This document shows positions 8,744-47,051 of a stretch of DNA of 64,000 nucleotides, piece by piece. Below the pieces are notes generated by a model, which saw nothing but the letters and a program-made list of their open reading frames with translations, was not told where the DNA came from and searched no databases. Every line of letters starts with the position of its first letter. The stretch's first letter is position 1. The stretch is from an uncultured archaeon (GTDB lineage: Archaea; Thermoplasmatota; Thermoplasmata; Thermoplasmatales; Thermoplasmataceae), in assembly GCA_000965745.1 (NCBI GenBank), contig CP009479.1, positions 380,457 through 444,456 on the forward strand. Direction: 5' to 3'. The translations under genes and the position numbers were made by a program.

Positions 8744-8750
8744 TTTTATA
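8744..8750 (+). promoter_or_regulatory. Candidate archaeal TATA box for the esterase gene
   Basis: ttttata lies ~25 nt upstream of ATG 8773, consistent with a leaderless transcript. Confidence 0.3.
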
Positions 8751-8772
8751 TTGAGTGCGAGATTTGCAACTC

Positions 8773-18935: not shown

Positions 18936-18949
18936 TAACGTTCAATAAC

Positions 18950-23967: not shown

Positions 23968-23992
23968 CTCTTCTTACACTGACAACTTGTAC

Positions 23993-24157: not shown

Positions 24158-24183
24158 AACGAAATAGTAGAACTAACGCCGAC

Positions 24184-24366: not shown

Positions 24367-24393
24367 TAATACATATTCAGCTTTTAGTATCTA

Positions 24394-24870
24394 TTGGTAA
24401 GACTCCGGCTCAAATTCACCCCTAACCCCTCTTTGAGCCTCCGCCGATTACTATGTGCCCTTCGCTCGCCTGCACGCCGAGCACAGGACCCCATGCTTCG
24501 ACTCCAATCAAAATTCACCCCTAGCCCCTCTTTTGATTTACGTCTCGCACTCTTCTTCGAAGAGCCCCTCATTCGCCTTGCTCATTCAGGGTGGTGTCCT
24601 GTGCTCGCCGCTCGTGGTGTATGTGTGGTGTTAAACACCTTCGCTTCGCTTGGTGTTCCACACCACCCACCGCTAACGCTTACACCACTCGGTCTTGCTA
24701 CGCAAGACTTCCGGCTCGCTTCGGGCACATTATTCTCTCCTGCGGAGTGCAATTTTAGGGGAACAGGGGGAGGGGAATTTTTGACCGCACAATCTCGCTG
24801 CGCTCGGTGCGGGATAATATTAGGGGTTCTCGGTCCGTGCTCACTTCAACGATTCACAGATGGATAATAC
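24394..24870. other. GC-rich, repeat- and stem-rich non-coding island (candidate structured RNA or repeat element)
   Basis: Local G+C is clearly above the flanks. Two 36-nt direct repeats (24401, 24500), a G-rich partial complement (24756-24780), 12-bp perfect long-range complementarity (24478-24489 / 24596-24607) and several hairpins. The ORFs here translate to low-complexity strings. Confidence 0.45.
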
Positions 24871-24941
24871 AAAGCACTGCGACCAACCCTTTTGGGAAAA
24901 GGTAGACGAAAACAAAAATTATTAGAAAATAATGTAATAAC

Positions 24942-24990
24942 CACGTGACGAGGTTTGTATAACAAACCTGACAAACAGGTTTTATACAAG
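24942..24990. promoter_or_regulatory. Overlapping palindromes upstream of the DGQHR gene (operator candidate)
   Basis: CACGTG (24942-24947). AGGTTTGtataaCAAACCT (24951-24969). AAACCTGacaaaCAGGTTT (24964-24983). RBS-like aggtaggtga at 25004-25013. Confidence 0.35.
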
Positions 24991-25016
24991 AAACCAATTA
25001 AGAGGTAGGTGAAACA

Positions 25017-26129
25017 ATGAGACTTAGAGCACTTGAAATTAGTCAGAAGGATACCCAGTTCTACCTCTGCTCATTTAGAGCAAAAGATATCGTTGGTATC
25101 TATAAGGTAGATACATGGAGAACGGATAACAGGAATGGCTACCAGAGAGATGTTGTAATCAGTAGGGCAAGAGGGTTTGGAAGATTCATAAGAGATGGCG
25201 GTGTCTCGCCTTCTTCCATACTGCTAAATGTGAGAGAAAGTGGAGTTATATCTTACAAAGATGGTTATTTACAGATCCCAGACGAGACTCCATTATGGAT
25301 CGTAGATGGTCAGCACCGTGTCAAAGGGCTCAAAGAAATGATTGAAAATGATGGTCACATTGACATGGGAGAATTTGAATTCCCCGCAGTAATAATGAAT
25401 TACCAGAATCCTTATGAGGAGGCTAAGCAATTCGTCATCATTAACAGAACCGCAAAGGGTGTACGGTCTGATTTAGGTGAAAGATTCCTTCAAAGGGCTA
25501 TTGAAGAACAAGGTAAAATGAGTGTCATGGCCAGACAAGGGCTCCCTTCATCGATTCTTACCGGAGTAGAATGGAAAACAAGGGCTGTCAATATAACCGA
25601 CAGGATTAGCACCCTGGATACTTCTATATGGAAAGACCTGATTATATTTCCGAACGAGCCTAAAGGCGATAAACTGGTCAGTCAAAAAGCATTTTCAGAC
25701 TCACTGAGGCCAATTCTTAATGACCGACTATTTGAGAGACGTACAGACGATGAAATAACCCAGATTCTCATAAACTACTGGAATGCAGTCAAGGAAATTT
25801 GGCCCAGATGCTTCAGCGATCCAAGCTCTTACGTTCTTCAGAAGTACGCAGGGGTTTTTGCCGTTCACAAGTTGCTTCCAAAGGCAGCTCAGTTCTGCCC
25901 TACTAAAGGCGATAAAATTGTTCTTACTAAAGATTCTTTCCTGGTAATTTTTGAAAGACTTTCTCAGAAGGACTTGGGGGACGGCAAGAAGTTTGACGAG
26001 GAAATTTGGGCAAACAGAGGCAGATATGGAATGCTTGGTACAACAATGAAGTCCGTTTCCCTAATTACAGACGACCTGTCAGATGCGCTTGACAATTCTT
26101 TAGGATCGGGACAGGATATAGAACTGTAA
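25017..26129 (+). CDS. DGQHR-domain protein (DndB-like, ParB/Srx-fold)
   Basis: Literal WIVDGQHRVKGL motif and downstream QFVIINRTAKGV (FxxxN) motif, as in the DndB/DGQHR family. Confidence 0.8.
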   Translation: MRLRALEISQKDTQFYLCSFRAKDIVGIYKVDTWRTDNRNGYQRDVVISRARGFGRFIRDGGVSPSSILLNVRESGVISYKDGYLQIPDETPLWIVDGQHRVKGLKEMIENDGHIDMGEFEFPAVIMNYQNPYEEAKQFVIINRTAKGVRSDLGERFLQRAIEEQGKMSVMARQGLPSSILTGVEWKTRAVNITDRISTLDTSIWKDLIIFPNEPKGDKLVSQKAFSDSLRPILNDRLFERRTDDEITQILINYWNAVKEIWPRCFSDPSSYVLQKYAGVFAVHKLLPKAAQFCPTKGDKIVLTKDSFLVIFERLSQKDLGDGKKFDEEIWANRGRYGMLGTTMKSVSLITDDLSDALDNSLGSGQDIEL

Positions 26130-26146
26130 TTACCCCCTATTTCTAT

Positions 26147-27376
26147 TTGGAGGAATGTATGTCTTGTGATTTTATTTCTGAATTTCAAGTAACTGGCGAC
26201 AAAGTAGTAAATCCAAGAGAAGGAATAACTTATGAATTCAAGGAGAATTTTAACTGGGGAGGCAAAGAGAAATATGCCAAGATCATGGCTTCTTTTGCTA
26301 ATTCCACAGGTGGTTACCTCCTATTTGGCGTAAAAGATGACGGGCATATCGAGGGTCTCTCTAACAACAACTTTGAAGACCGCGACCCGGCAAATATCAG
26401 TTCATTCTTGAATTCCTTGTTCACTCCTGCAATACGGTGGGGCAAGTTCGTATGTGAACTTGGAGGATACAAGATCGGAGTCATCAAAGTCGAAGAGGCA
26501 ATAGAAAAACCAATTATATCATATAGGAACGGCCAAGAGGTGAAGGAAGGAGACATTTTCTTTAGGTATGCAGCTCAAAGTGAAAGAATTAAGTTTTCTG
26601 AACTGAAGTCGATCATTGAAATTGGAAGAAGGGTGTACGGAGAGAAGCTCCTCAAGAGTCTAAGAATGATTGTCGAGAAAGGTCCTGAATCTGTAAAACT
26701 GCTTGACCTGAACGAGTTGAAAGATGCAAAGAAAGATGAGATTTACTTCCTAGATGATAACTTTCCCGATTCGGAAGTAAGGGTACACAGAGCCTCAGAA
26801 AGCGAACAAACAAAGGGAGTTGGCATAAAAATAGTCAATGTTGAAGGTAAGGCGATGCCAATTACAATTAGGGAATTTGCAAACATAAGTTCAGAACTTA
26901 TTGTGCACGCCTTTCTTGATCAAGAGCTCCCTGCAAAATTTGATCCAATGGGCTTTGTGGAACGTCTCGCTTTCGAAACTAGCGGTTTGGTGCCTATGTA
27001 TTTTTATATAAAAGAGGCCAACTTAACAAGAGATGAGGCAGTTGAGCTTATTAAAAAAACAAAGTCTACCACTAGAGGAAGAACTACTATCCTAAAACGA
27101 TTGAGTGGTAAGGAATACGACTTCAGATCTTCAACATACAGCAACACACTTGATGACTTAATTAATGGTTCCTTGAGCATAAGTGATCTGCAAACCTCAA
27201 ATGTCAGGACCGTCTTGCAATCTATACGGTCTTGTTCAAAAGGCTTCTTGGTGCAGAACTGGAATAGGCTGAAGGACATAATGCAATACCTATATGATGA
27301 GTATTATATGAACCCGAAATTCAGGTCTGAGGTTAGATGGGCAATGTGTTTCATAGACTTGACCTTATTTTCATAG
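26147..27376 (+). CDS. AlbA_2 / Schlafen-like DNA-binding domain protein with uncharacterised C-terminal half
   Basis: N-terminal EGITYEFKENF...YAKIMASFANSTGGYLLFGVKDDGHIEGL matches the AlbA_2 (divergent-AAA/Schlafen) consensus pattern. Confidence 0.75.
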   Translation: MEECMSCDFISEFQVTGDKVVNPREGITYEFKENFNWGGKEKYAKIMASFANSTGGYLLFGVKDDGHIEGLSNNNFEDRDPANISSFLNSLFTPAIRWGKFVCELGGYKIGVIKVEEAIEKPIISYRNGQEVKEGDIFFRYAAQSERIKFSELKSIIEIGRRVYGEKLLKSLRMIVEKGPESVKLLDLNELKDAKKDEIYFLDDNFPDSEVRVHRASESEQTKGVGIKIVNVEGKAMPITIREFANISSELIVHAFLDQELPAKFDPMGFVERLAFETSGLVPMYFYIKEANLTRDEAVELIKKTKSTTRGRTTILKRLSGKEYDFRSSTYSNTLDDLINGSLSISDLQTSNVRTVLQSIRSCSKGFLVQNWNRLKDIMQYLYDEYYMNPKFRSEVRWAMCFIDLTLFS

Positions 27377-27405
27377 TCCGCGTAAGTATTCGCTTAATAT
27401 TTTAA

Positions 27406-27426
27406 TCAAATCCCGACCGGTCCATT
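27406..27426 (+). repeat. attR1: exact 21-nt copy of the tRNA-Ala 3' end
   Basis: Identical to 9889..9909. Confidence 0.85.
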
Positions 27427-27432
27427 CGAACC

Positions 27433-27825
27433 CTACCTGAACAGCTTGAGACCCTTGTCAGTAAAAACTTCAAAGTGATTATATAAGGTATAGAGTGAGC
27501 ATCCGTTATTAATTGCTATTGACGCAACAATAGCGTCCATTCTTGGAACTGCCCCTCCTTTTCTTTCCGCGTCTAATTCTAAAACGGCAGATAGTTCACT
27601 GTCATTTTTACTGTATTCCAGAGTTGGAATCTGCAGGACTAGACGAGAATCTCTGGAGTATTTCTCTATACCGTACAGCACCTCATGCATGTTCACTGAA
27701 CTTGTGCAGTATTCTTCCCCGCTTTCGATGATTTTAAGCATGAGTTCCTGGCCTTTGTATGAGTCCTTATCCAGCACTTCGATGATGATATCCGTGTCCA
27801 GAAGAATCAATTTCTTTTCTCCCAT
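27433..27825 (-). CDS. vapC: PIN-domain toxin VapC
   Basis: LILLDTDIIIE (first acidic residue), HEVLYG, and MDAIVASIA, typical of PIN domains. Overlaps the vapB stop. Confidence 0.85.
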   Translation of the reverse strand: MGEKKLILLDTDIIIEVLDKDSYKGQELMLKIIESGEEYCTSSVNMHEVLYGIEKYSRDSRLVLQIPTLEYSKNDSELSAVLELDAERKGGAVPRMDAIVASIAINNGCSLYTLYNHFEVFTDKGLKLFR

Positions 27826-28019
27826 CGTTTCTTTTCTATATCCATGAGGAGCTCCTTCTTATTTTCAAATTCCACGCTTCCCCGTAGAGACAAAAGTAGA
27901 TCCTTCTTGCTCTGTGATTTAATAAGCCTGTCCAGAAGTTCACTGAAACTTTCATTCTCCTTCTTGAATCCCATCAGTTCATCATATACAGATTTCTTAA
28001 TGGTGATAGTTTTAGGCAT
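27807..28019 (-). CDS. vapB: VapB-type antitoxin (archaeal COG1753-like)
   Basis: MPKTITIKKSVYDELMGFKKENESFSELLDRLI matches the common archaeal VapB pattern. Lies upstream of vapC and overlaps it. Confidence 0.75.
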   Translation of the reverse strand: MPKTITIKKSVYDELMGFKKENESFSELLDRLIKSQSKKDLLLSLRGSVEFENKKELLMDIEKKRWEKRN

Positions 28020-28040
28020 AACATATGTTTATGTTTAACA

Positions 28041-28051
28041 CTATTTATACC
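28041..28051 (-). promoter_or_regulatory. Candidate TATA box for vapBC
   Basis: Reverse strand reads ggtataaatag, 22-32 nt upstream of ATG 28019. Confidence 0.35.
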
Positions 28052-28116
28052 TTCATACATCTACCAGTAAAGGCGCTGGAACGTGTCTTCTATAAAGTAT
28101 TCGCTTAATATTTTAA

Positions 28117-28136
28117 TCAAATCCCGACCAGTCCAC
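28117..28136 (+). repeat. attR2: 18/20 copy of the tRNA-Ala 3' end
   Basis: tcaaatcccgaccAgtccaC compared with the tRNA sequence. Confidence 0.7.
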
Positions 28137-28240
28137 TTCAAGTTTACCGGGATATGCGAACAACTTTCAAGATTTACCCCCACCCTTGATTGTCTGCAGA
28201 AGCTCCATGCGGGATCACTTCAGCACCGGATCCAGTTCAA

Positions 28241-29695
28241 TCAATTTTCTGGTTTCTTCAATTTCTTGAAAAGCTCATGTTCTATATCCGAAAGATTCAT
28301 GAAGATTACATTTCCAGCCAGCCCATGCATGGCTCCCTTGAATCCACTTTTTGAAAATACAGCATATGTATAATTTTTCCCGGGGTATTGCTTTCTCAGT
28401 GATTCTGATTTTGTCTTTAAAGCTTCAACCACATTTATCGGTACGGGACTGTTTGTCCACTTGCATTCTGCGAAAAACAATTCTCCACGTTTTTCGGAGT
28501 GTGCGACGATATCGATCTCCTCCACACCCCTGCCCTTTTTTCCGGACCCGTTTCTGCCCCACCACCTGGAAACAGTGTCAAACGATCTGCCTAATATCCC
28601 TTCCAATATTAGTTCCTTCATGAGGTTCTCAAACTGCTCACCCGCAAATGTGGGAAAATCTGTCTTTATGCTCTCAAGTACGCCTCCGTTGCGGGAACTC
28701 TCGATTTCACTCTTATGCGGCAATACATACCTGAACCAGAACTTCAGGTACTGGTCGGATATCCAGTACAATTTTCTCTTGAATTTCTCATGAGCCCCGA
28801 ATGGCTTTTCAGGTATTACAAGGCCAAGTGACATGAGGACATCGAGATACTTGGATACCATACTCTTGTCCAGCCCGGAATAGTAACATATCTCTCCCAA
28901 TGTATGATTTCCGTAAGAAATAGATCTGAGAATCAGCATGTAGTTCCTCGGTTCCCTGAATTCAGTTCTAAGGAGAAATTCTGCCTCCTCATAGAGTGCA
29001 GAACCTTTTGAAAGCAGGTTCTTTGACACATTTCCCCAAAATCCAACAGAAGGATCAAGTTTCAGAAGATATTCTGGTATGCCGCCAAATACAAAGTATG
29101 TATTGCATAAATCTTCAAATCCATAATCCACAAATTCAGCCAAATATCTGAACTTCAAAGGTTTCAGCTGCAGTTGGCCGGTTCTTCTGCCGTAAAGAGG
29201 ACTTCTACAGGAAAGTACTTCATTTTCCATTATGCTGATTGATGAGCCTGAAAGAATCAACATTACATTCATCTGCCTCAGAATCGTGTCGTATATTTTT
29301 TGAAACACCGATGAGATTGCCCTGTTAGCCTCTATTAGATATGGAAATTCATCAATGGCAATTATGACCTTTGATTTGCTTGCTTTCGCACGAAATGAGC
29401 TACTTGAAGCCAGAACAGAGAAAAGAGAGTGCCAATCATCAAAACTTGCCTTGATAATACTGTCATCTTCCAGAAACCTTGATACACTCGCCTTGAAGTT
29501 GTTTATGTTTTCTTTGTCTCCTTCTGCTGTTGCAAGAAAATAGACTCCCCTGTTGCCAATGAACCTACTGATTAATTCAGTCTTTCCAACCCTTCTTCTC
29601 CCATAAAGGATGAACAGCGAAGCTTCCTTGGATGAGTAAGCATTCTCAAGGATTTCTAGTTCCTCAACTCTGTTGACAAACTTTTGTTGATACAT
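28241..29695 (-). CDS. Archaeal ATPase family protein (Arch_ATPase + DUF234-like)
   Basis: FVNRVEELEILENAY...LFILYGRRRVGKTELI (Walker A), IIAIDEFPYL (Walker B), and a C-terminal EIDIVA...FAECKW nuclease-like DUF234 pattern. Confidence 0.8.
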   Translation of the reverse strand: MYQQKFVNRVEELEILENAYSSKEASLFILYGRRRVGKTELISRFIGNRGVYFLATAEGDKENINNFKASVSRFLEDDSIIKASFDDWHSLFSVLASSSSFRAKASKSKVIIAIDEFPYLIEANRAISSVFQKIYDTILRQMNVMLILSGSSISIMENEVLSCRSPLYGRRTGQLQLKPLKFRYLAEFVDYGFEDLCNTYFVFGGIPEYLLKLDPSVGFWGNVSKNLLSKGSALYEEAEFLLRTEFREPRNYMLILRSISYGNHTLGEICYYSGLDKSMVSKYLDVLMSLGLVIPEKPFGAHEKFKRKLYWISDQYLKFWFRYVLPHKSEIESSRNGGVLESIKTDFPTFAGEQFENLMKELILEGILGRSFDTVSRWWGRNGSGKKGRGVEEIDIVAHSEKRGELFFAECKWTNSPVPINVVEALKTKSESLRKQYPGKNYTYAVFSKSGFKGAMHGLAGNVIFMNLSDIEHELFKKLKKPEN

Positions 29696-30178: not shown

Positions 30179-30448
30179 GATATCTCACGGTCATAATTTT
30201 CAACAGAAAACCTCCAATCAATAGATTTCAACTTCTGTCCATCGCCCATAAACCCTTGATAGAAACAAACTGGAAAAGAGTGCCAATGAAATGGTCAATT
30301 CCTAATTCTGCCCTCCAGTTGTTTAATTCAGCTTATGGTTTATCTCAAGTCCGTGGTGTAGCAGCCTCTAGATATGCGAATATGAACAAAGTTATTGGTA
30401 TAACAATATGGATGCGTGCTAAGTAATCTCAATTCAAGAGTGAACAAC

Positions 30449-33400
30449 ATGAGTGATTCAGGAGACAATAAAAAAACAACCGGTGACCCACAAATAGGGA
30501 GCATCCGGGCAAACACTAAAACTTCAACCAAGTGGATTGCAGTTGTAATAGCCCTTCTCGCAATAATAGGAGTCCTGGGTGGGGTGCTTGCAACACACTA
30601 TTCCGCGGCCCAGACAGCCGGAGGGATCAACGCAATACTTTCAAGCAAGATTGGAGCAATAGATCAGAATGGAACCTATACGACGAGCATTACAGCGTCA
30701 AGCACTTTCAAGAACATGACAGTCTACTTCGGTGATGGTTCCAGCCAGCTCTTAAATTATAACGGGAACAATACTGTGAAAATCAGCCATAGGTATACTA
30801 ATCCCGGTGAATACTATATTTTTGCCGATATCAACTATGGCTCAACCAGCAGTTATTACATAGAGCCCGTCAAGGTTACACCACAGTACCCGAACACAAA
30901 ATATGCCTACAGATCCATGTCTGTGGATCCCCTGTCTTCATCACCGCAGTTGGTAAACAACCTGTCCAACATATTCAGCCCTGGTTCGCACATGACGCTC
31001 AACTTCGTCCCCCCTGTCGGAGGAGGCAGCGACCAGATAGTGCAGCAGACGCTGTCTATGTCCAACGGAACAGGGATGGTTTCGAGCCAGAACATACCTT
31101 ACTTCTACAACCTGAACAATAAGGAATATGAGATTCCAGTTCAGACGGAGGCTTATGGAGGTCTGCAGTCCGGCCTTTATGTTCTTGAGATCAACACCAC
31201 CACAGCTCCGGTAAACTTCACACAGATGATAACTGCCAAGGTCTCAAGCACATCGATCATGAATTTCACGGCCAATCAGCAGTACATTTCTGCCTCTGCA
31301 ACGTCGCTTGTCCACAACCTTTCAGCGTTGCAGTTTGACAGGACAAACATAACCTACAGTGCCAATACGACAGTTAATTACACAAACCCTGCAGCTCTGT
31401 TTCTCTGGGATTCAGCGAATATCACCCTGAATAACGGATCAGTTACTTACGGGACAAAAACGGTAACGTCAGGAACGTTTAAGGTGAATGCATCCACAGA
31501 GCTCTCCCTCTCCAGGCAGACTAACGTTACGTTCAACAACATGGCATCTGCAGAATTGAATGATACCAGCACTGTTTCAGTTTTCACCGGTGCAGCATCA
31601 GGCATAACAACGGACAATGCCACCCAGATAAAATTCCTTGCCAATGCGCATAACGTTTCAGTGACATCAACATTGACCGGGGCCAGCACTGTTCCACTCA
31701 ACAACGGAGAATACAACCGTTCCGCAACAGTCACAACATCCTATTTCATAGATTTCCCGGTTGTCGGACAGGTACAGCAGCAGACTGGGGCATCCACAAG
31801 CTTCACCAACGCCGAGCCAAACCTGCCAGGCGGATATACGACGCTTGATCCGGCAACAGCATATTACCAGGCAGACACAGAAATACTTTCCAGCGTCCTG
31901 ATGACGCTTGTAACGTATAACGGGTCTTCAACAAGCAATTTTGAGCCGCTCGTTGCAAAACAGCTGCCTTCTTTCAAGAACGGCGAAATAAACAGCAACT
32001 ACACGAACAAGACTGTAACCACTCCATGGGGTTCAAAATATCAGTACAACGTCACCCCGGGCGAGAATTACACCTTTGTTGTAAACCAGAAGATCAAGTT
32101 CGCAAACGGGAATCCGGTTACAGCGTGGGATATCATGTACTCCCTGACAAGGACACTTCTCTTCGCGGGTGGATCTCCGGGAACTTCCGGATGGATCCTC
32201 GGGCAGTACATCCTTCCAGGGCATTACTTCAAGACAAACACTTTCTACAACATTACCACTAACATGACCGTAGACAACAACACAAACTCCATCACATTCC
32301 ACTTCCAACAGCCAATGAACCCGAGTTTCGCGTTCCAGATCTTTTCGTCGGTCGGTACCTGGATCGAGGATTCCGGCTGGTACATAAAGCATGGGGCGGG
32401 GATAACATGGAGCAAACAGGGATTCCAGGACTACAAGAAATATGGGGATCTCAGCAACTACAACTCCTATGTCCAGAACCACGTGATGCCTGACGGCCCC
32501 TACAGAGTCTCATATATTGTGCCTGGGACTCAGGTTACACTTGCAGCAAACCCGGATTTCGTTTCACCCGGACCATGGTATCCTGCAGCGAAGATCAATA
32601 CGGTCAACATACTATACCCCCACACCAATCAGCAAGCTTACCTGCTTCTGAAATCGGGGCAGGCTCAGAACGCATTTCTTCCGACGACATACTGGAACCA
32701 GACCAGGGCACTTGCAAACAGCGGAACTATCAGTGTGTATGGGTTCCCCACTCTGTCAATCAATTTCTACAACTTCAACCTGAAAATCAATGCTACGATA
32801 CTGCATTCCCTGGACCAGTCGTCAAATGTGCCGTCATACTTCTTCGTCAACCCGAACGTCAGGAAGGCCTTCGCATACGCATTCAACTATTCCCTTTACT
32901 TCGGAAGGCAGGTTGGAAATGAGGTTTACAATACAACCTTCTTCTCGCCCTATGTAGGAATGCTTCCGTCTGGAATGCTCTACAACCAGACTGCACAGGG
33001 CCTGGCGGACGCGGGAAGCGGTGTTGTCAATGCTAACGGCCACGAGCCTTTCCAGCTTCAGCAGGCAAGAAAATACCTGAACTACTTCTTCAATGGCACA
33101 ACAAGCTCATCCAACCACGACACAGCAGGCACAATGAACGTGAAATTCCAGGGAGGAAAGGTTCTGTATAACGGCAACCCGCTTGTGATTCCAATAATAG
33201 TTCCTGCCAACGATCCCACAAGCACCGCAGCAGTAACAACATGGGGTGCGGACCTGAAGCAGATTCTACCCGGCGCATCTTTCCCTATTGTCCCGCTGCC
33301 GCTGACCCAGCTGTTCGGGGCATACTCGGTGCAGGGGCAGAACCCGATGCCAGTAAGCTGGGGCGCCTGGAACCCTGACTACCCCTTCCCCACAGACTAT

Positions 33401-33775
33401 CTGCTGCCAATGGCAATGCCAATAAACGGATCCTTCTACATGGGAGCTGCAGATTACACGCCATACAATGTGGAAAACACCAGTCACAATGCCTACAACC
33501 TGTCTGAAGCAAGCTTCATGAACCAGGAAATCAGTGCATTGAACAATGCGACAAGCAATGTGACAAATCAGACACTTTCGGAGTACTGGTTCCATGTTAC
33601 GAACGGAATGGTCGTAAACAGCACAAATGAGGTATACGCCGGACAGACACACAGATACCTAACCATCAGCGCAGGCATAAACGGAAACGACATTACAGCG
33701 TACCAGCAGAACGTGATGTTCGGAGGCAAAGGCATATTGCTCTACAACCTTATCGGGTACAACACAACAGCGTGA
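30449..33775 (+). CDS. Large N-anchored surface protein: TM anchor + PKD-like domain + T/S/N-rich region + family-5 solute-binding (Opp/Dpp-type) domain; paralog 1
   Basis: TM segment WIAVVIALLAIIGVLGGVLA. PKD motif VYFGDGSS...HRYTNPGEYYIF. Long SBP_5-like C-terminal region. About 40 N-x-S/T sequons by eye. GTG 30416 is an alternative start. Confidence 0.75.
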   Translation: MSDSGDNKKTTGDPQIGSIRANTKTSTKWIAVVIALLAIIGVLGGVLATHYSAAQTAGGINAILSSKIGAIDQNGTYTTSITASSTFKNMTVYFGDGSSQLLNYNGNNTVKISHRYTNPGEYYIFADINYGSTSSYYIEPVKVTPQYPNTKYAYRSMSVDPLSSSPQLVNNLSNIFSPGSHMTLNFVPPVGGGSDQIVQQTLSMSNGTGMVSSQNIPYFYNLNNKEYEIPVQTEAYGGLQSGLYVLEINTTTAPVNFTQMITAKVSSTSIMNFTANQQYISASATSLVHNLSALQFDRTNITYSANTTVNYTNPAALFLWDSANITLNNGSVTYGTKTVTSGTFKVNASTELSLSRQTNVTFNNMASAELNDTSTVSVFTGAASGITTDNATQIKFLANAHNVSVTSTLTGASTVPLNNGEYNRSATVTTSYFIDFPVVGQVQQQTGASTSFTNAEPNLPGGYTTLDPATAYYQADTEILSSVLMTLVTYNGSSTSNFEPLVAKQLPSFKNGEINSNYTNKTVTTPWGSKYQYNVTPGENYTFVVNQKIKFANGNPVTAWDIMYSLTRTLLFAGGSPGTSGWILGQYILPGHYFKTNTFYNITTNMTVDNNTNSITFHFQQPMNPSFAFQIFSSVGTWIEDSGWYIKHGAGITWSKQGFQDYKKYGDLSNYNSYVQNHVMPDGPYRVSYIVPGTQVTLAANPDFVSPGPWYPAAKINTVNILYPHTNQQAYLLLKSGQAQNAFLPTTYWNQTRALANSGTISVYGFPTLSINFYNFNLKINATILHSLDQSSNVPSYFFVNPNVRKAFAYAFNYSLYFGRQVGNEVYNTTFFSPYVGMLPSGMLYNQTAQGLADAGSGVVNANGHEPFQLQQARKYLNYFFNGTTSSSNHDTAGTMNVKFQGGKVLYNGNPLVIPIIVPANDPTSTAAVTTWGADLKQILPGASFPIVPLPLTQLFGAYSVQGQNPMPVSWGAWNPDYPFPTDYLLPMAMPINGSFYMGAADYTPYNVENTSHNAYNLSEASFMNQEISALNNATSNVTNQTLSEYWFHVTNGMVVNSTNEVYAGQTHRYLTISAGINGNDITAYQQNVMFGGKGILLYNLIGYNTTA

Positions 33776-33919: not shown

Positions 33920-34354
33920 ATGACAGTAACCGTGCGTTCAGAAGTGAGAATATGGCCAAATGCCAGCAAGATAGACGACTGCACCCAGAATTACCTTACC
34001 ATTCCAAAGAAGCTTATATCTGACACATACAACCCTGGTCCGGGTTCAATAGTAACAGGGAAGATAGTAGCCGTTTCAATAGAAACAGATGAAGACATAG
34101 TTGGTGGCGGCGAATTCTCAAGTGTTATAAGGGATATCCCGGCCAGTACGAGGATAGTACTCGGGCAGGGCGACTATGATTACCTTTTTATATTCACAAA
34201 GGACTGGAAAAAGATTTCCAAAAAATTCACTGTTCCAGGGAGAAAATTCCTGACCTACTCCATTGACTCGATCCAGAACGGAAGGAAAAAAGAGAGGATC
34301 TACCACGGAAATACGGTATACTGGGAAGAGAAGGACGGTACAACCCTGGAATGA
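33920..34354 (+). CDS. Hypothetical protein
   Basis: ORF of about 144 aa with no recognisable motif. Sits upstream of the AAA ATPase gene. Confidence 0.4.
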   Translation: MTVTVRSEVRIWPNASKIDDCTQNYLTIPKKLISDTYNPGPGSIVTGKIVAVSIETDEDIVGGGEFSSVIRDIPASTRIVLGQGDYDYLFIFTKDWKKISKKFTVPGRKFLTYSIDSIQNGRKKERIYHGNTVYWEEKDGTTLE

Positions 34355-34461
34355 GAAGGCAGGTTCAATGATGACTGATCGTGCGATACGAATAAATCTG
34401 ACCAACATATATTACATCCGGACGTGGATATTTGCCGGACGGATATGACAGGAGCAACAGG

Positions 34462-35568
34462 ATGGAGAAAGTGAAGTATTACCTTGCCCTCGCAATAGAG
34501 AACAGAAACAAAGGAAGAATGAATGAGGCTGAAAGGAACTACATAGACGCCGCACTTTCACTTCTTTCCCATGCAAAGTCTGATGACACACCATCCAGGG
34601 CTAAGGACATACGAAGAGCAATAGATGTCCTTGACAACTTCCTCAACGTGTTCCACCCATCAGACACAGGCTCCGGAGATGATTATGCAAATGAAGGGTG
34701 GAAAATTCTCAACGAAGTCGGAATAAGCGCCTCCAGGCTCGAAAAAACATCGCTTGAGGACGTGGCTGGCCTCAGTACTGTCAAGGAGGAAATCATGAGG
34801 AGGCTCATTTACCCTATCAAATATCGTGACCTGTCAAAAAAATATGGAGTCAGGCCATCCGGCGGGGTACTGCTCTACGGGCCGCCGGGAACCGGGAAGA
34901 CTTTCCTGGCCAGGGCGATTGCCAACGAGGCCGGGGCAGCTTTCATCAATGTAAACCCCTCAAGCCTTTATAACCAATGGTTCGGGCAATTCGAGAAGAA
35001 CATAACCAGGGTGTTTGAGGCAGCAAGGCTCCTGTCCCCCTCAGTGATTTTCTTTGACGAGATCGAGACTATCGCCTCAAGGAGAGGTGGGTACGAGCAG
35101 GACGCGGCCTCAAGGAGAGGGGTCTCACAGCTTCTTATAGAGATGGAGGGTGTAGAAAAGACGAGGGATGAGGAGATATTTGTACTGGCTGCAACCAACA
35201 GGCCTTGGGACCTTGATGAAGCCATTCTGAGGCCTGGCAGGTTCGACATACGGGTTTACACACCCCTCCCTGATGCCAGTGCCAGAAAGAAGATGTTCGA
35301 AAACAATCTCAGGAACATTGCATTCTCTGATGGGGTCGACTTTGATGATCTTGCCTCAAAGACAGAAGGTTACAGCGGGGCTGATATTTCATACATATGC
35401 AGGAGGACAGTTATTGGCGCCTTTGCAAGAAGTGTTGAAGCCGGCAGAGAGATAAGGCTTGCTGGAAAGGACATGGAACAGACTATTGCAGAGGTGAAGC
35501 CCTCTGTTTCAGGAAAAACTGTAAGCCTTTATGAAAAGTTCTCCGGAACTTCAGGCATGTCAGCCTGA
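34462..35568 (+). CDS. AAA+ ATPase with N-terminal MIT-like helical domain (Vps4/CdvC-like)
   Basis: N-terminal ~65-aa helical segment (YYLALAIENRNKGRMNEAERNYIDAALSLL). Walker A GPPGTGKTF, Walker B IFFDEIE, SRH ATNRPWDLDEAILRPGRFD. Confidence 0.7.
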   Translation: MEKVKYYLALAIENRNKGRMNEAERNYIDAALSLLSHAKSDDTPSRAKDIRRAIDVLDNFLNVFHPSDTGSGDDYANEGWKILNEVGISASRLEKTSLEDVAGLSTVKEEIMRRLIYPIKYRDLSKKYGVRPSGGVLLYGPPGTGKTFLARAIANEAGAAFINVNPSSLYNQWFGQFEKNITRVFEAARLLSPSVIFFDEIETIASRRGGYEQDAASRRGVSQLLIEMEGVEKTRDEEIFVLAATNRPWDLDEAILRPGRFDIRVYTPLPDASARKKMFENNLRNIAFSDGVDFDDLASKTEGYSGADISYICRRTVIGAFARSVEAGREIRLAGKDMEQTIAEVKPSVSGKTVSLYEKFSGTSGMSA

Positions 35569-35627
35569 GGCTAGGCTCAACAACAAAGATTTTAATTACG
35601 AATATCTTGTTATGCATAGGGAAGAGC

Positions 35628-35945
35628 ATGACGATTGAAGACTTTCTTATGCCGGGTGAGGAGATTAAATATCATGGAGGCTCCAGCCTCATTTATGGTG
35701 GCAAGCCGTATGAACTGATAATAACAGACAGGAGACTCCTGCTTTACGGCAGGCGCGGGATGCTTTTCAAGAAGGATGATATTGTAAGCCAGAAGGTGGA
35801 GGAGGTTCAGAATATAAAGTACTCCGAGAACGGCATAATCAGAAAAGAGGGAGTTCTTCAGATTGACGCAAAAACGAGGTTCTCGCTTATAGGCCATCCA
35901 AGCCAGGTGAAGGCCATATATCAGCAGATCCTCCAGTTCTTCTGA
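35628..35945 (+). CDS. PH/GRAM-like small protein
   Basis: GEEIKYHG...YELIITDRRLLLYGRRG...IVSQKVEEVQNIKY...LQIDAKT fits the bacterial/archaeal PH (bPH/GRAM) beta-sandwich pattern. The ORF track uses TTG 35607. Confidence 0.45.
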   Translation: MTIEDFLMPGEEIKYHGGSSLIYGGKPYELIITDRRLLLYGRRGMLFKKDDIVSQKVEEVQNIKYSENGIIRKEGVLQIDAKTRFSLIGHPSQVKAIYQQILQFF

Positions 35946-35951
35946 TCAGAA

Positions 35952-36461
35952 ATGGCGCTGAGAGATACCTACAGGAACATGGTAGTGGAGAAAGTCCAGA
36001 AAAGGGCCGGATTTTCCCTTGACCAGGGAGGTGTACCTGCAAGGCAGTGGAAGAGAATATCTGAGCTTTCAGAGATTCTTCATGAAGCGGTTGTCCTGGA
36101 GCAGATGATCAGGGTTGAGGAAAAAAGAAGCAGATCTGTCTCGTCCAGAATATCCTCAAGAATAAGGCCCGCCAAAGCAGAGGAGCTGAAGCAATCGCTT
36201 TCTTCACTTGAAAAGGTTAAAAGCGGGATATGGAACAAGTGCGATTCCATTGCATATGATATCGTCCGTGAGAAGGAGATGTCGGGGGCCGATTCAGTCC
36301 ACGCGGTCCCCCCGGATTCCGCTGGAATCATGAGATGCCGTGCCTGCGGCGGAGGTGTCTCAATACTTGCTTATGACAATTATAAATGTACGAAATGTGG
36401 TCTCGGTTACTCAGCCAGGGACTACCTGGAAATTCTGATAAAAGATGTGGAAGGAATATAA
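35952..36461 (+). CDS. Helical protein with C-terminal zinc ribbon
   Basis: CRACGG...CTKCG near the C-terminus. The N-terminal half is charged and helical. Confidence 0.5.
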   Translation: MALRDTYRNMVVEKVQKRAGFSLDQGGVPARQWKRISELSEILHEAVVLEQMIRVEEKRSRSVSSRISSRIRPAKAEELKQSLSSLEKVKSGIWNKCDSIAYDIVREKEMSGADSVHAVPPDSAGIMRCRACGGGVSILAYDNYKCTKCGLGYSARDYLEILIKDVEGI

Positions 36462-36505
36462 GAATGAGGTCCGCTGTACGGATGCTGGAAAGCGGTAGTC
36501 GTATG

Positions 36506-37162
36506 CTACTCCTTTTCTGATTCTTTGTTCTGCCCCAGCTTCTTGATCAGTTCATCCACCGATTCTTCATCGCCGTTCACTGTGGACGGTGCCTTTTGAG
36601 CATTTTCCTGTGAAGGAGCTGAAGAGGCTGAAACGCTAATCTTATTCCTGATGCCGCTCAGTATGTCTTCCACCTTTTCAGGGTTCTTCTGCCCAATCTG
36701 GTCCACAGAGGAGGTTATCTGGTCAAGCTGGGAGTTCAGCCTTTCCTGTATCTGGTCTGATGACATCATTATGTTTTCTATGTTTGTGTTGATCTGTGTA
36801 AGCTGCTTGTCTGAGAGCTGACTCTTAATAAGGTCCTGAGAGCCTTCCTTTAATGAGGCCCATATGTCCTTGGTAGTTTTGGCGAATTGCAGGTTCAGGT
36901 CTATGTTGTCTAGAAATAATTTATAATCCTTAAGTCCCCTTATTGCGCTGTTAAGCATCACTATGTTAGACGCAAAAATACGTGCCTTCTGATCGTTTTC
37001 ATCTTCAAGGGCCATTTTTATGTCGTCCACGTTTCTTTCCCGGTTCCTTTCATAACTTCTTATTGCCCTTTCTATTTCACTCTTCCAGCGATTCAGCTTT
37101 GATCTTCTTTCCATGATCTTTTCGTTTTCAGTTTTACCAAACTTAAAAGGCGACATTGTCAA
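36506..37162 (-). CDS. ESCRT-III/Snf7-like coiled-coil protein (CdvB-like candidate)
   Basis: 218 aa. Basic N-terminal helices (IERAIRSYERNRERNVDDIKMALEDENDQKARIFASNIV) followed by an acidic C-terminal half and the tail DELIKKLGQNK. This charge polarity and pattern are typical of the Snf7 family. Confidence 0.55.
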   Translation of the reverse strand: MTMSPFKFGKTENEKIMERRSKLNRWKSEIERAIRSYERNRERNVDDIKMALEDENDQKARIFASNIVMLNSAIRGLKDYKLFLDNIDLNLQFAKTTKDIWASLKEGSQDLIKSQLSDKQLTQINTNIENIMMSSDQIQERLNSQLDQITSSVDQIGQKNPEKVEDILSGIRNKISVSASSAPSQENAQKAPSTVNGDEESVDELIKKLGQNKESEKE

Positions 37163-37320
37163 TCTACGTAGAATAACTAAGGGAATCAGATTATTAAGAT
37201 TTTCCTCATTATCTCGCTATTTCGCCCTCCGATGGTTCATGCGGGGACTCAATGAATTCTGCTGAAATACTCCCTCGCAGGGAGTTTTTATTTAATTGTA
37301 TGTTCATATACAAATAACTG

Positions 37321-37866
37321 ATGAGGCCAAGATACTGGAAGCTTGCAGTAATACTCCTTGCATTGGGGATAATCTTCACCTACGGGTGGACACAGAGTTT
37401 CCATTCGGTTAACAAGACGTACTTCACCTTCCCGAAGGACGGAAATGGAACTGCCATTGTTGTGTTCGCAGTTTCAAACGTGAATGTGAATGGTGAATTC
37501 CAGATATCATCCAATAACGCCACAAAGTATGGAAATCCTGCCCCGGTCACGGTTGTTTTCCAGAACGGAACAAAGGAGATGGCAAATTCCACCATGTTCC
37601 TGAATCAGTATTCGCTCACTGCCAAGTTCCATTTCAAGGGAGGACTGGGTGAGCCCGGATTCAGTTCTTCAGGAGGGATCGCAAACATAAGCATATCGAG
37701 CGGGGACCCTCTGGCAGTTGCATCAATAAGCAATATCTCTGAGAGTTTCTTTCTTCACCATCTGTCGGGGACCCTTCGGCTATACGGGTCAAACGTCAAC
37801 TATTACATGATTTACATTGATTCGTACGCAACTGTGAACGTAAAAGCGGTAGGTGGGTCTTTTTGA
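37321..37866 (+). CDS. N-anchored/secreted protein
   Basis: N-terminal TM or signal segment WKLAVILLALGIIFTYGW, then a beta-rich region with N-x-S/T sequons. Confidence 0.5.
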   Translation: MRPRYWKLAVILLALGIIFTYGWTQSFHSVNKTYFTFPKDGNGTAIVVFAVSNVNVNGEFQISSNNATKYGNPAPVTVVFQNGTKEMANSTMFLNQYSLTAKFHFKGGLGEPGFSSSGGIANISISSGDPLAVASISNISESFFLHHLSGTLRLYGSNVNYYMIYIDSYATVNVKAVGGSF

Positions 37867-38543
37867 ATGAAAAAGAGGCAGTGGACAAGATGAGAGACCT
37901 TCAGAGTTCCATAGAAACCTCCATGGGGTACAGCAGGGCCGGATCAAAATTCCCGGTTCTTTTTCTGTTAACCCTATGTGGAATTCTGGGAACATTGATT
38001 CTGTTCCTGGCATGGGACTTCTACAACTACTTCTCCATTTCAACCGATTTGACTTCGGTACCAATAGGCAGTGGTTCATCCGTGAATGTTTCCGCCATAG
38101 TCCTGCTTATGTGGATCATCATTGCCGCTATATTCTACAACATACTGGCGAGAGCATACCGTTCCACACCTACAGGAAAGTGGGATCGTGACCTAGATGA
38201 GGGGATAACCGGCATAATAAAAATAATAGAGAACGAAGACTGGGATGAGACGCTTATGGGCCTGAGAAAGGCAAAGCTTTCATTCGTCTTCCTCGGCGTG
38301 ATGCAGTTTGTTCTCTACTGGGCTCTCGCCGCAATTGTGTTTTCGCTGGTTTTTTATTTCGTTGCCGGAGCACTTTTCGGTGTCGGATACAGCAATCTGT
38401 TCATATCCGGAATCTCCGCCATAATAGTGCTTGGTCTCGGTGACAGTTCGATCAAGAAGAGTTACAGGCAGCTATGGTACATGGATGGCCTGATAGCAGA
38501 GCTGAGGTGGTTTTATCTCGAATTCCAGGGATCAGAACTTTAA
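37863..38543 (+). CDS. Polytopic membrane protein (about 4 TM)
   Basis: Hydrophobic segments throughout. TTG 37863 overlaps the upstream stop. ATG 37890 is an alternative start. Confidence 0.5.
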   Translation: MNEKEAVDKMRDLQSSIETSMGYSRAGSKFPVLFLLTLCGILGTLILFLAWDFYNYFSISTDLTSVPIGSGSSVNVSAIVLLMWIIIAAIFYNILARAYRSTPTGKWDRDLDEGITGIIKIIENEDWDETLMGLRKAKLSFVFLGVMQFVLYWALAAIVFSLVFYFVAGALFGVGYSNLFISGISAIIVLGLGDSSIKKSYRQLWYMDGLIAELRWFYLEFQGSEL

Positions 38544-38598: not shown

Positions 38599-38805
38599 AT
38601 GAAAAAGACAAGGCTCTCCACCTACGCTGAGCTTTCCTATGACAAGTTCATATCATACATGGAGTGGATGGTGAATAGAGGATTTCTGAAGGAAAGTGAC
38701 GGGGAGGTGTCTGTTCTTGAAGAAGGAGTGGAGACCTACAACAGACTTGTGGAATGGATATTGAAGTATGTGGGAAAGCTTAAGTTCAGCAGAAGAAGGT
38801 TCTAG
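38599..38805 (+). CDS. Winged-helix (HTH_45-like) protein; the domain appears to extend 5' of the ATG
   Basis: KTRLSTYAELSYDKFISYMEWMVNRGFLKE...LEEGVETYNRL matches small archaeal wHTH proteins. The in-frame upstream codons (DLYVVARIIKALIDDGP) look like helix 1, but no ATG/GTG/TTG occurs back to the stop at 38503. Confidence 0.55.
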   Translation: MKKTRLSTYAELSYDKFISYMEWMVNRGFLKESDGEVSVLEEGVETYNRLVEWILKYVGKLKFSRRRF

Positions 38806-44814: not shown

Positions 44815-45816
44815 ATGATAAACGTAGCTGCAACTGTCGGGAAACTCAGGAAGATGAATGCAAAGAAGATACTTCTCCAGGTACCGGATGGTCTGAAGCC
44901 CAATGTTTTTGACTATTTTTCGCGTCTTTCCTCCGAGTTCAATGTCATCGTGAGCTCGGAAGGATTCTACGGGGCATGCGACACAGGCAACATGGAGGTC
45001 TACAAGGATGTTGACTGCATAGTACAGCTCGGCCACTCTGAAATTCCAAACATAAACTACCCAAAGCCCGTAATCTTTGAGGAATACAGGAATGAGAAAA
45101 CGGTGGAAATTGATCCCTCTGTGCTCGAGCCTCTTGTATCTGGCGGTTCAAGAAGAGTAGGGCTTGTAGCGTCCATACAGTACATGAATGAAATGCAGGA
45201 TGTCAGGAGGCTGCTTGAAGACCAGGGAATAGAGGTCAGGGTGGGTGAAAGCGACGGGCGAATGAGATACGCGGGACAGGTTCTTGGCTGCAATTTCAGT
45301 TCAGCCCACTCAGTTGAGGCGGATGTTGATTCGTTCCTGGTCGTCAGCACGGGAATGTTCCACGCCATAGGCGTTCAGCTTTCAACATCGAAGGATGTTT
45401 TCCTGCTGGATCTCAATGACAGGACCATGAGGAACATAAAGGGTGAAACAGACAAGTTTCTGAGGAAAAGGTACGGAGCGCTCTACAGGGCAAGAGATGC
45501 AAGGAAATTCTGTGTGGTAGTCGACACAAAAGTCGGCCAGCACAGGAGGAAGCTGGCAGATGTTCTCATGAATGATGTCAGGAAGGTCGGAGGGGAACCT
45601 GTCCTTCTGACAACGAATGAGGTGAACCCCATGGACTATGAGAACATGCGCTGCGATGCAGTTATTTTCACGGGTTGCCCCAGAGTCCCGATTGACGATC
45701 ATGAGAAGTTCACAATGCCGGTCATGACTCCTCCTGAATTCCAGACAATTTTCGGCCTTAAGAACCCCGGCAGGTACATAATGGACGAGATTGTGGCAGT
45801 TGACGACCTCAACTGA
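44815..45816 (+). CDS. dph2: Diphthamide synthesis radical-SAM enzyme Dph2
   Basis: ILLQVPDGLK N-terminus. Three domain-wise conserved Cys contexts (YGACDT, LGCNFS, FTGCPRV). Confidence 0.8.
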   Translation: MINVAATVGKLRKMNAKKILLQVPDGLKPNVFDYFSRLSSEFNVIVSSEGFYGACDTGNMEVYKDVDCIVQLGHSEIPNINYPKPVIFEEYRNEKTVEIDPSVLEPLVSGGSRRVGLVASIQYMNEMQDVRRLLEDQGIEVRVGESDGRMRYAGQVLGCNFSSAHSVEADVDSFLVVSTGMFHAIGVQLSTSKDVFLLDLNDRTMRNIKGETDKFLRKRYGALYRARDARKFCVVVDTKVGQHRRKLADVLMNDVRKVGGEPVLLTTNEVNPMDYENMRCDAVIFTGCPRVPIDDHEKFTMPVMTPPEFQTIFGLKNPGRYIMDEIVAVDDLN

Positions 45817-45818
45817 TC

Positions 45819-47051
45819 CTATATCTTCTTTCCAACCAGGTAAATCCTGTCTGAATCGACTATTTCACACTCGACTTTTGAATAAACTGGAAAATCACCC
45901 GGAATAACTACGGGCCTGTAAGCAAGGTCCCTTCCAACAACTGTTCCATTCTTGCCTTTCTCGTTTACCAGCACCGTTTTGACCTTTCCTGTTTCTTTTG
46001 AAAATTTGTCCCTCGTAATCTCCTCGTGAATCCTGGCGTATTCCTTTGTCCATCTCTTTGTGTCGTTTGAAGGTGGAGTCTTCACGTTGTAGTCCGGCGT
46101 GTACGGCCTTGGGGAAAATCTTGTTATGTTGATTATTTCAGGGCGCGTTTTCTCAATAAGGCTCACAGTTTTTTCGAAGGATTCCTCATCGTCGCCGTGA
46201 TAGCCTGCAATAATGTCCGTTGAAAGCATGGAATCGGGGTACGCATTCCTGAATGCAGAAACTATCTCCTCAAAATCCTCTCTTGAGTACTCCCTGTTCA
46301 TTGACTCCAGTACCCTGTTGTCTCCGCTCTGCACAGGCAAGTGCATGAACTTGAACACCTTCCCGCTGCTGTATGACTCCATAAGCCTGTCCTTTACCGA
46401 GAGTGTGTTCCTGGGTTCCATCATGCCAACTCTAAGCATGAAGTCTCCTTCCGACGAGGATATGGCTTCCACAAGGTCGGGGAGCGATGTGCCAATATCT
46501 TTACCGTATGCCGCTGTGTCCAGTGAGGATATCCTCACTTCCCTGATCCCCCTCTCAAGCTGCATCCTGATCTGGCTTACAATCTTCCCAATGGGGCGCG
46601 ATACCAGTTTCCCCCTGGCCACATGCGATATGCAGTAGTTGCAGCTTCCGGTGCATCCCTGATTTATGGGGATCCCGTCAAATATTGACGGTTCCTTAAT
46701 CTCTATGTCATCCAGCTGACCGGTGTAGAAGCTTCTGAAATCCTTTGGGGCGAGAACTTCAATGTTTTCGTCTTCAAGGACTTTGCCGGTCACAGACGAG
46801 ATGCAGCCTATCACCCTGACCCTGGATTCCCGGGAGAGCTCCCCTATTCTTTTCGTCATGCGGTCTTCTGTTGACTTGATGACCACGCAGGTACCTATGA
46901 CACTGATGTCAGCCTCTTCCGGTCTCCTGACAAGTGTATTGCCTTCGCTCAGAAGTTTGTTAACGTAAAGCCCTGATTCGGACTTGTTAAGAGTGCATCC
47001 ATAAGATTCAAAGTATACTTTCAACAGACCACCGATTGGTTGCCTCCACAT
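45819..47051 (-). CDS. MiaB-like radical SAM methylthiotransferase (archaeal tRNA MTTase)
   Basis: UPF0004 domain YFESYGCTLNKSES, radical SAM cluster CTGSCNYC, and a C-terminal TRAM-like region. Confidence 0.8.
   Translation of the reverse strand: MWRQPIGGLLKVYFESYGCTLNKSESGLYVNKLLSEGNTLVRRPEEADISVIGTCVVIKSTEDRMTKRIGELSRESRVRVIGCISSVTGKVLEDENIEVLAPKDFRSFYTGQLDDIEIKEPSIFDGIPINQGCTGSCNYCISHVARGKLVSRPIGKIVSQIRMQLERGIREVRISSLDTAAYGKDIGTSLPDLVEAISSSEGDFMLRVGMMEPRNTLSVKDRLMESYSSGKVFKFMHLPVQSGDNRVLESMNREYSREDFEEIVSAFRNAYPDSMLSTDIIAGYHGDDEESFEKTVSLIEKTRPEIINITRFSPRPYTPDYNVKTPPSNDTKRWTKEYARIHEEITRDKFSKETGKVKTVLVNEKGKNGTVVGRDLAYRPVVIPGDFPVYSKVECEIVDSDRIYLVGKKI

Follow-up and report, generated by a model that had tools for sequence, protein, structure and literature searches.

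What does the gene cluster at 33920-37162 of this archaeal DNA encode, and had such a system been described before? The window, by which we mean the whole 64,000-nucleotide stretch that was analysed (GenBank assembly GCA_000965745.1, contig CP009479.1, positions 380,457 to 444,456), belongs to an uncultured soil archaeon of the Thermoplasmataceae, and the locus carries genes for an ESCRT-III protein and a Vps4-like ATPase, two components of ESCRT, the complexes for endosomal sorting that are required for transport. The locus is probably a minimal ESCRT system of the Thermoplasmata clade, made up of an arCOG07400-type beta-rich protein, a Vps4-like MIT-AAA ATPase and one Snf7-family ESCRT-III protein; this estimate applies to both the identity of the system and its general mechanism. 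A first-pass annotation, made from the letters of the sequence, had described an ESCRT-III and MIT-AAA (Vps4-like) module with PH-like and zinc-ribbon genes in between. The module is genuine, and all six of the open reading frames (ORFs) named there were verified in place, but the most conserved accessory gene, located directly upstream of the ATPase gene at 33920-34354, had been omitted. The locus contains the following genes.

33920-34354 (ORF open from GTG at 33908), plus strand: arCOG07400-type beta-rich protein of about 144 amino acids (aa), third core member of the ESCRT module in Thermoplasmata
34462-35568 (ORF open from TTG at 34432), plus strand: Vps4-like ATPase, 368 aa, with matches to Pfam AAA and AAA_lid_3 and to NCBIfam CdvC, and an AlphaFold2 (AF2) model
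35628-35945 (ORF open from 35607), plus strand: PH-like protein of the bacterial type (bPH), 105 aa, with bPH_3/bPH_1 family matches
35952-36461, plus strand: helical and zinc-ribbon protein (ZnR169), 169 aa, with four invariant Cys and an AF2 model
36506-37162, minus strand: ESCRT-III protein of the Snf7 family, 218 aa (216 aa by gene callers), matching Pfam Snf7 and convergent with the ATPase, PH-like and zinc-ribbon genes

In the lineage of the window, the PH-like and zinc-ribbon cassette separates the ATPase gene from an inverted ESCRT-III gene. An identical copy of the locus was present in several independent soil-metagenome assemblies, and the nearest genome bin was a Thermoplasmataceae metagenome-assembled genome (MAG; L001, 85%). 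Fourteen genome loci were retrieved through the Snf7 family, and the window proteins were mapped on them by tblastn and iterated hidden Markov models (HMMs); counting the window, n = 15. The ATPase gene was located no more than 7 kb from the Snf7 gene in all 14 retrieved loci, and the arCOG07400-ATPase-Snf7 linkage was found in 13 of the 15, from Thermoplasma, Oxyplasma and several MAG lineages. Conservation across relatives had been named as a check on the cluster, and the core is indeed kept in them.

A homologue of the 33920-34354 gene lies directly upstream of the ATPase gene in 13/15 loci. This gene was assigned to arCOG07400 by homology to Thermoplasma sp. proteins (loci L005 and L006) and by its match in position and size to TVG_RS01980 of T. 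volcanium, an arCOG07400 gene that overlaps the vps4 start. The protein had no Pfam or PDB sequence match, and its PDB profile search was not significant; the statement on its fold comes from Makarova et al. 2024 (PMC10936438), where the authors call arCOG07400 a 'beta-barrel'. The arCOG07400-type and PH-like families were also considered as paralogues, and this was rejected, as hhalign shows no relation between them.

The system itself is not new. According to Makarova et al. 2024, published in mBio (PMC10936438), there is a Thermoplasmata-specific Vps4 clade, and the minimal ESCRT system consists of Vps4 (arCOG01307), ESCRT-III (arCOG00454) and arCOG07400. Because the same three-gene system is defined there, the core of our finding is already known; an ESCRT module in a euryarchaeal genome, which the first-pass annotation had thought unexpected, has thus been described for the Thermoplasmata, and at NCBI the orthologue of T. 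acidophilum already bears the name 'Snf7 family protein'. The point on Thermoplasmata was restated in a 2025 review (PMC7619361). The new points added here are modest: the PH-like/zinc-ribbon cassette, a MIM1-like tail on the ESCRT-III protein and a retained Cdc48-type second region of homology (SRH) in the ATPase.

The identity of the 218-aa protein is given by its match to Pfam Snf7 (PF03357), which scored 45.1 bits (E = 1.2e-11, gathering cut-off 27.3) over model positions 3-170 of 171. As had been proposed, it is a Snf7/ESCRT-III protein, matched over its full length and above cut-off. Its N-terminal part bears an xFKFGKxE motif; the Snf7 core follows, and a variable linker joins this core to a MIM1-like amphipathic helix (EESVDELIKKL) in the C-terminal part. 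The protein is the only ESCRT-III paralogue within the window. Its top PDB sequence match was CHMP2A, a weak one (E = 0.046). We collected 62 Snf7 homologues; all of those with a named source came from Thermoplasmata/Thermoplasmatota, and PF03357 was found in all homologues listed at 132 aa or more. Identity to named relatives was 58% for T. acidophilum and T. volcanium and 53-54% for Oxyplasma.

The alignment of these homologues displayed a conserved core, a linker variable in both length and composition, and a short conserved motif near the C-terminus, such as EESVDELIKKL in the window, DKDLEDLLKSL in Thermoplasma and DQKIDDLLKGL in Oxyplasma. Written as (D/E)xx(L/I/V)(D/E)(D/E)(L/I/M)(I/L)xx(L/V/A), the motif occurred in 45 of 56 full-length homologues compared with 0.2% of shuffled tails. 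The consensus of the type 1 MIT-interacting motif (MIM1) is (D/E)xxLxxRLxxL(K/R), and the tail agrees with it at the acidic position 1 and at the hydrophobic positions 4, 8 and 11. This conserved MIM1-like tail suggests that the ATPase is recruited by ordinary MIT-MIM binding. An earlier domain survey described euryarchaeal Cdv proteins as being without interaction motifs (PMC8970359). At the other end of the protein, the xFKFGKxE motif was present in 50/56 full-length homologues. It resembles, and no more than resembles, the N-termini of Snf7, CHMP4 and CHMP6, which read LFG(K/R/W), and it hints at a membrane-binding N-terminus.

The ATPase has a MIT-like three-helix N-domain (residues 1-64, approximately 34462-34653), which a linker connects to a single AAA cassette whose SRH is LRPGRFD; a lid and a C-terminal helix follow. 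Pfam matches were to AAA and AAA_lid_3, and NCBIfam CdvC aligned with it end to end (12-370 of the protein to 9-364 of the 370 model positions). The AF2 model, built from a 25-sequence alignment, had a mean predicted local distance difference test (pLDDT) score of 81, with N-domain helices at 2-16, 22-39 and 44-64 (pLDDT 62-77) and the C-terminal helix at 351-364. Among 13 N-domains of the family, six matched Pfam MIT with E<=1, the best of them at 5e-5, and a profile of the family N-domains gave weak matches in the PDB, including the Atg38 N-terminal region and VPS4A. The suggestion that the N-terminal 65 or so residues form a MIT three-helix bundle is therefore borne out by both the predicted helices and the family matches. 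Pfam Vps4_C also matched the ATPase (E = 0.021), but that model matches Cdc48-like proteins as well and is hence not diagnostic.

In some relatives a pair of paralogous Vps4-like ATPases is encoded close to Snf7, at 7708-9009 and 11331-12464 in L002 and, in tandem, at 6029-7135 and 7201-8328 in L014. One protein of 704 aa (P0101) looks like a fusion of two Vps4-like AAA cassettes, and its N-terminal region aligns with the N-domain of the window ATPase. Cuniculiplasma is tabulated with three Vps4 paralogues in Makarova et al. 2024 (PMC10936438).

The SRH of the ATPase had been described as of the RPGRFD type, and the motif is LRPGRFD in all 17 ATPases of the clade (the window and 16 relatives). 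The Vps4-type SRH, with adjacent Arg residues and no Pro-Gly (LRRF/RRRF), is missing from the window ATPase and from all 16 relatives; among the references it reads LRRFQKR in CdvC (4LCB, 4LGM) and RRRFERR in yeast Vps4 (5UIE). The first-pass annotation had raised the possibility of an independent recruitment on this account, and named a phylogeny of the AAA domain as the check. We constructed a neighbour-joining (NJ) tree from 255 trimmed columns with Kimura distances and 300 bootstraps. It took in the 17 ATPases of the clade, four PDB references for Vps4/CdvC (three CdvC, 4LCB, 4D80 and 4LGM, and yeast Vps4, 5UIE) and nine canonical two-AAA proteins of the Cdc48 type, each represented by its D1 and its D2 domain. 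The clade was recovered at 99%, and it stood with Vps4/CdvC apart from Cdc48 D1 and D2 in 258 of 300 bootstraps (86%) and with D2 in 6/300; the NJ method is crude and the reference set small. ATNxPW and (I/V)YxPLPD are common to the clade and Vps4/CdvC, where Cdc48 has ATNRP(D/N) and other residues. A first NJ tree with heterogeneous two-AAA proteins had been discarded, as neither D1 nor D2 was monophyletic in it, and was rebuilt with canonical Cdc48 proteins only. A search of representative proteins with the ATPase was uninformative about its nearest neighbours, since multi-AAA proteins, whose domain scores sum, dominated the result.

Since the clade joins Vps4/CdvC in 86% of the NJ bootstraps, independent recruitment is not supported. 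The Pro-Gly of the clade SRH is most simply read as a retained ancestral state, because the published tree puts the clade inside Vps4 and derives Vps4 from Cdc48.

The PH-like and zinc-ribbon genes are separated by a 6-nt gap and lie in the same frame. Alone, the PH-like protein matched bPH_3 weakly (E = 0.02) and stayed under the cut-off for bPH families (15.7-16 bits against 23), but as a family bPH_3 matched all eight members (best 8.4e-6) and bPH_1 five of the eight (best 6.9e-5). By these matches the 105-aa protein belongs to a bPH-type family, in line with the PH/GRAM-like label that it had been given. Vps36 GLUE (PF11605) gave a faint match in one of the eight members (E = 0.07), and the top PDB profile match of the family, the PH-like DUF1696 protein 3DCX, was not significant (E = 1).

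ZnR169 had been called a helical zinc-ribbon protein, which holds: it has four invariant Cys in the pattern CxxC-x13-CxxC, and its AF2 model (pLDDT 79.5) displays helices at 3-19, 30-62 and 71-110, a small beta ribbon at 127-152 and a helix at 155-168. Only five close homologues were found in 5.8 billion proteins, and among the 15 genome loci the zinc-ribbon gene was present in the window, L001 and L003 only. In the metagenome loci L019, L020 and L022-L026, the PH gene is followed by a divergent homologue of 161-213 aa (HMM E 1e-9 to 6e-12) with the architecture of ZnR169: helical in its N-terminal part, then CxxC-x13/14-CxxC, and a helix at the C-terminal side; L021 has a truncated, weaker match. 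The zinc-ribbon partner in L025 (5331-5972) carries an inserted hydrophobic, transmembrane (TM)-like segment in its helical region, which would put that member at the membrane.

The PH-like gene was located beside ESCRT genes in 8/15 genome loci, in three gene orders. Two of these are PH-x-ATPase-Snf7 and Snf7-x-ATPase-PH, and the third is x-ATPase-PH-ZnR with an inverted Snf7 gene. When metagenomes were scanned with the PH family, 34 real loci came out. In four of these (L019, L033, L038 and L039) the PH gene adjoins ESCRT genes of the clade; in L028 and L029 a Snf7 gene of another, divergent type comes directly after it (31.5 bits in Pfam, over the cut-off), and the same divergent Snf7 type lies near the PH gene in L049. 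In total the PH family adjoins ESCRT-III genes in at least four arrangements, divergent Snf7 included. The PH-like and zinc-ribbon genes thus form a real conserved cassette, and linkage to ESCRT-III recurs in the PH family without being exclusive.

Several PH-like proteins of the genome loci have a Pro-rich tail (for example SSPASKTNPANP and MMDRQLHRPPQE): L004 4640-4996, L010 4582-4938, L011 5943-6292, L012 2844-3200 and L013 9271-9651. The PH-like proteins of the window, L001 and L003 have no such tail; in these three loci the zinc-ribbon gene lies downstream instead. These tails could be MIM2-like, though they show no clear match to the consensus.

Downstream of the ESCRT-III gene are two further genes that had been placed in the cluster as membrane or secreted proteins.

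37321-37866, plus strand: single-pass glycoprotein-like protein, 181 aa, with one N-terminal TM segment and seven N-x-S/T sequons
37863-38543, plus strand: protein of 226 aa with about four TM segments, overlapping the 181-aa gene

The ORFs and the TM segments are as described. Membership in the module is unsupported, because homologues of both genes were found only in the closest relative, L001, and the two are probably passengers. Other strains of this population (L017 4431-4751; L018 2631-2951) have the 181-aa gene called at just 106 aa, so that it is variable between close strains.

How well does a minimal ESCRT system stand against other explanations of the locus? One alternative sees in the cluster a locus for stress response, with the 218-aa protein as a generic coiled coil or as an envelope-stress protein of the PspA/Vipp1 type, given that ESCRT-III and PspA/Vipp1 are united in one superfamily (PMC7619361) and that the direct PDB match is weak. 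This is very improbable: there was no PspA family among the five Pfam matches up to E = 1, with Snf7 assigned over the full length, and a PspA/Vipp1 identity was rejected on that result. The link of the gene to a MIT-AAA ATPase is the ESCRT arrangement, and the protein bears a C-terminal MIM-like tail. The ATPase might in turn be a Cdc48/VAT-derived unfoldase of the classic AAA clade that gained its helical N-domain separately and is only analogous to Vps4/CdvC. All 17 clade members have the LRPGRFD SRH, the top 50 Foldseek matches in the PDB were all p97/Cdc48-family chains, NCBIfam CDC48 scored 245 bits compared with 197 for CdvC, and single Cdc48-type domains reached 229 bits compared with 152-185 bits for Vps4/CdvC. 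We nevertheless consider such an origin improbable, as the NJ tree groups the clade with CdvC and yeast Vps4 and seldom with D2, the two shared Vps4/CdvC motifs are absent from Cdc48, the MIT-like N-domain is accompanied by a conserved ESCRT-III linkage, and the tree of Makarova et al. (PMC10936438) puts the clade inside Vps4, itself derived from Cdc48. It is quite possible, if on balance doubtful, that only the three-gene core is a functional ESCRT and that the PH/ZnR cassette and the two membrane-protein genes are unrelated inserted passengers. The restriction of the membrane-protein genes to L001 fits this, and in a Foldseek search of the PDB with the ZnR169 model all matches were at E>=0.8, to generic zinc ribbons and helical hairpins, with nothing related to ESCRT. 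The PH gene, in contrast, stands beside clade ESCRT genes in genome and metagenome loci alike and directly upstream of a divergent Snf7 gene in two others; that the linkage keeps recurring although the genes are rearranged speaks for a functional tie, of the PH protein at least.

Other points weigh against a minimal ESCRT system with an attached cassette. No ESCRT gene was seen in the available flank of 24 of the 34 PH loci, although many of the PH-only loci are on short contigs; on the 140-kb contig of L025, the PH and ZnR pair has no ESCRT gene within 5 kb. The CdvC score of the ATPase, 196.6 bits, is far under the equivalog cut-off of 650 bits, and by this score the ATPase is not a CdvC equivalog. 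Pfam MIT was sub-threshold for the N-domain of the window ATPase itself (E = 0.085). The SRH of the clade is of the Cdc48 type, and by raw similarity its AAA cassette comes out a little closer to Cdc48 D2 (mean 41%) than to Vps4/CdvC (38%). In the ESCRT-III tail, position 7 is hydrophobic where MIM1 has Arg, and the tail motif was drawn up post hoc from the very sequences in which it was then counted, so that the shuffled control shows conservation only. No RNA-seq run containing the locus was found; a promoter and terminator scan relied on bacterial consensus sequences and was uninformative for an archaeon. We also found no experimental study of the Thermoplasmata minimal ESCRT system in the literature.

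Taking the locus as a minimal ESCRT system, we infer the following mode of action. The ESCRT-III protein would polymerise on the cytoplasmic face of the membrane, which would suit the wall-less, S-layer-less cells described in reviews of the Thermoplasmatales. Its basic and aromatic N-terminus (xFKFGKxE) would aid membrane binding, and its MIM1-like helix, carried on a variable linker, would bind the MIT domain and so bring in the ATPase hexamer. By extracting subunits with ATP, the hexamer may then reshape the polymer, so that the neck is constricted and cut. For the arCOG07400 protein and the PH-like/zinc-ribbon pair, the most likely role would be that of upstream adaptors in targeting or nucleation. 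More specifically, the bPH protein, alone or with its ZnR partner, may be a previously unrecognised upstream ESCRT-III adaptor, a small split analogue of Vps36 and Asgard Znr_PH_CC_SB modules that targets or nucleates polymers in Thermoplasmatota and in at least one other lineage (L028, L029); we regard this proposal as rather unlikely.

The output would be membrane scission for cytokinesis and/or for vesicle budding or membrane repair, and a function in membrane scission, be it in division, in vesicle formation or in both, is likely. In Makarova et al. 2024 (PMC10936438), a role in cell division is suggested for the system in Ferroplasma and Acidiplasma, which are without FtsZ, while Thermoplasma and Cuniculiplasma carry the system alongside FtsZ.

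The finding adds an uncultured Thermoplasmataceae lineage to a catalogued ESCRT system and overturns no current view. At issue is how the Thermoplasmatales, described as having no S-layer and in some genera lacking FtsZ, divide and shed vesicles. Three details make this question more testable. The conserved MIM1-like tail contrasts with the survey mentioned above (PMC8970359). A Vps4-clade ATPase with a Cdc48-type Pro-Gly SRH fits the proposed descent of Vps4 from Cdc48, and the recurrent linkage of bPH proteins, often with a zinc ribbon, to ESCRT-III hints at simple membrane adaptors outside the Asgard archaea.

The window has other features around the locus. Just downstream of the membrane-protein genes, 38599-38805 encodes a small HTH_45/Sso10a-like winged-helix protein; this gene recurs only in L001, and larger homologues lie near the ATPase gene in Thermoplasma sp. 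(L005, L006). Two very large SBP_bac_5 (peptide/oligosaccharide-binding) proteins are encoded at 30416-33775 (1119 aa) and 51985-55782 (1265 aa). The 1119-aa protein, with much Asn, Ser and Thr, is anchored by an N-terminal TM segment, and both are likely surface glycoproteins of a wall-less cell. An apparent defence island extends over 17823-29695, with a GC content of 0.40 at 26-30 kb compared with about 0.46 elsewhere. The genes of this island and the housekeeping genes are listed below.

17823-18935: AAA_22 ATPase, apparent defence island
18950-21043: N6_N4 DNA methylase, apparent defence island
21040-23967: ResIII helicase/restriction subunit, apparent defence island
25017-26129: DndB-like protein, apparent defence island
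26147-27376: Schlafen/AlbA_2 protein, apparent defence island
28241-29695, minus strand: ATPase_2+DUF234 protein, apparent defence island
9836-9907: tRNA-Ala(CGC), housekeeping
44815-45816: diphthamide synthesis protein, housekeeping
45819-47051, minus strand: MiaB-like radical-SAM/TRAM enzyme, housekeeping

Among known systems, the Thermoplasmata minimal ESCRT is the closest, with the same three core genes, the same taxon and the same arCOG07400-then-vps4 order, as in Thermoplasma sp. L005 and L006. In T. volcanium (TVG_RS01980-01990) the order is arCOG07400 (155 aa, overlapping the vps4 start), Vps4 and ESCRT-III, according to PMC10936438. The window differs in having the ESCRT-III gene inverted and the PH-like/zinc-ribbon cassette between it and vps4. 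Term searches of the available text and supplements of PMC10936438 returned neither a PH or zinc-ribbon component for the clade nor a MIM1-like tail or retained SRH Pro-Gly.

Like the crenarchaeal CdvABC system, in which CdvB is the ESCRT-III and CdvC the Vps4 (PDB 4LCB, 4D80, 4LGM), the window has a gene for a MIT-AAA ATPase adjoining an ESCRT-III gene. Both ATPases have ATNxPW and IYxPLPD, and they stand together in the NJ tree, but the SRH is LRRFQKR in CdvC and LRPGRFD in the window ATPase, which also missed the CdvC equivalog cut-off. CdvB has a Pro-rich MIM2 and a winged helix (PMC8970359), whereas the tail of the window ESCRT-III protein is MIM1-like. For CdvA, the cluster proteins had no related Pfam match at E<=1 to 10, with no CdvA-specific profile or structural comparison made.

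As in the eukaryotic ESCRT-II protein Vps36, with its split PH/GLUE domain containing zinc fingers, and in Asgard Znr_PH_CC_SB, a PH domain, a zinc module and a helical region occur near ESCRT-III/Vps4 in the window. Here, however, the modules are separate small proteins and the PH domain is of the bPH type; membership is not claimed, and no winged-helix ESCRT-II core or ubiquitin machinery was seen in the cluster. In raw sequence and structure the AAA cassette is most similar to the D2 domain of Cdc48/p97/VAT, with 38-41% identity where D2 alone is aligned, a root-mean-square deviation of 2-3 A over about 280 residues and an identical LRPGRFD. Unlike those proteins, the window ATPase has a single AAA cassette, carries a MIT-like N-domain in place of the CDC48_N double-psi barrel, and is encoded in linkage with ESCRT-III.

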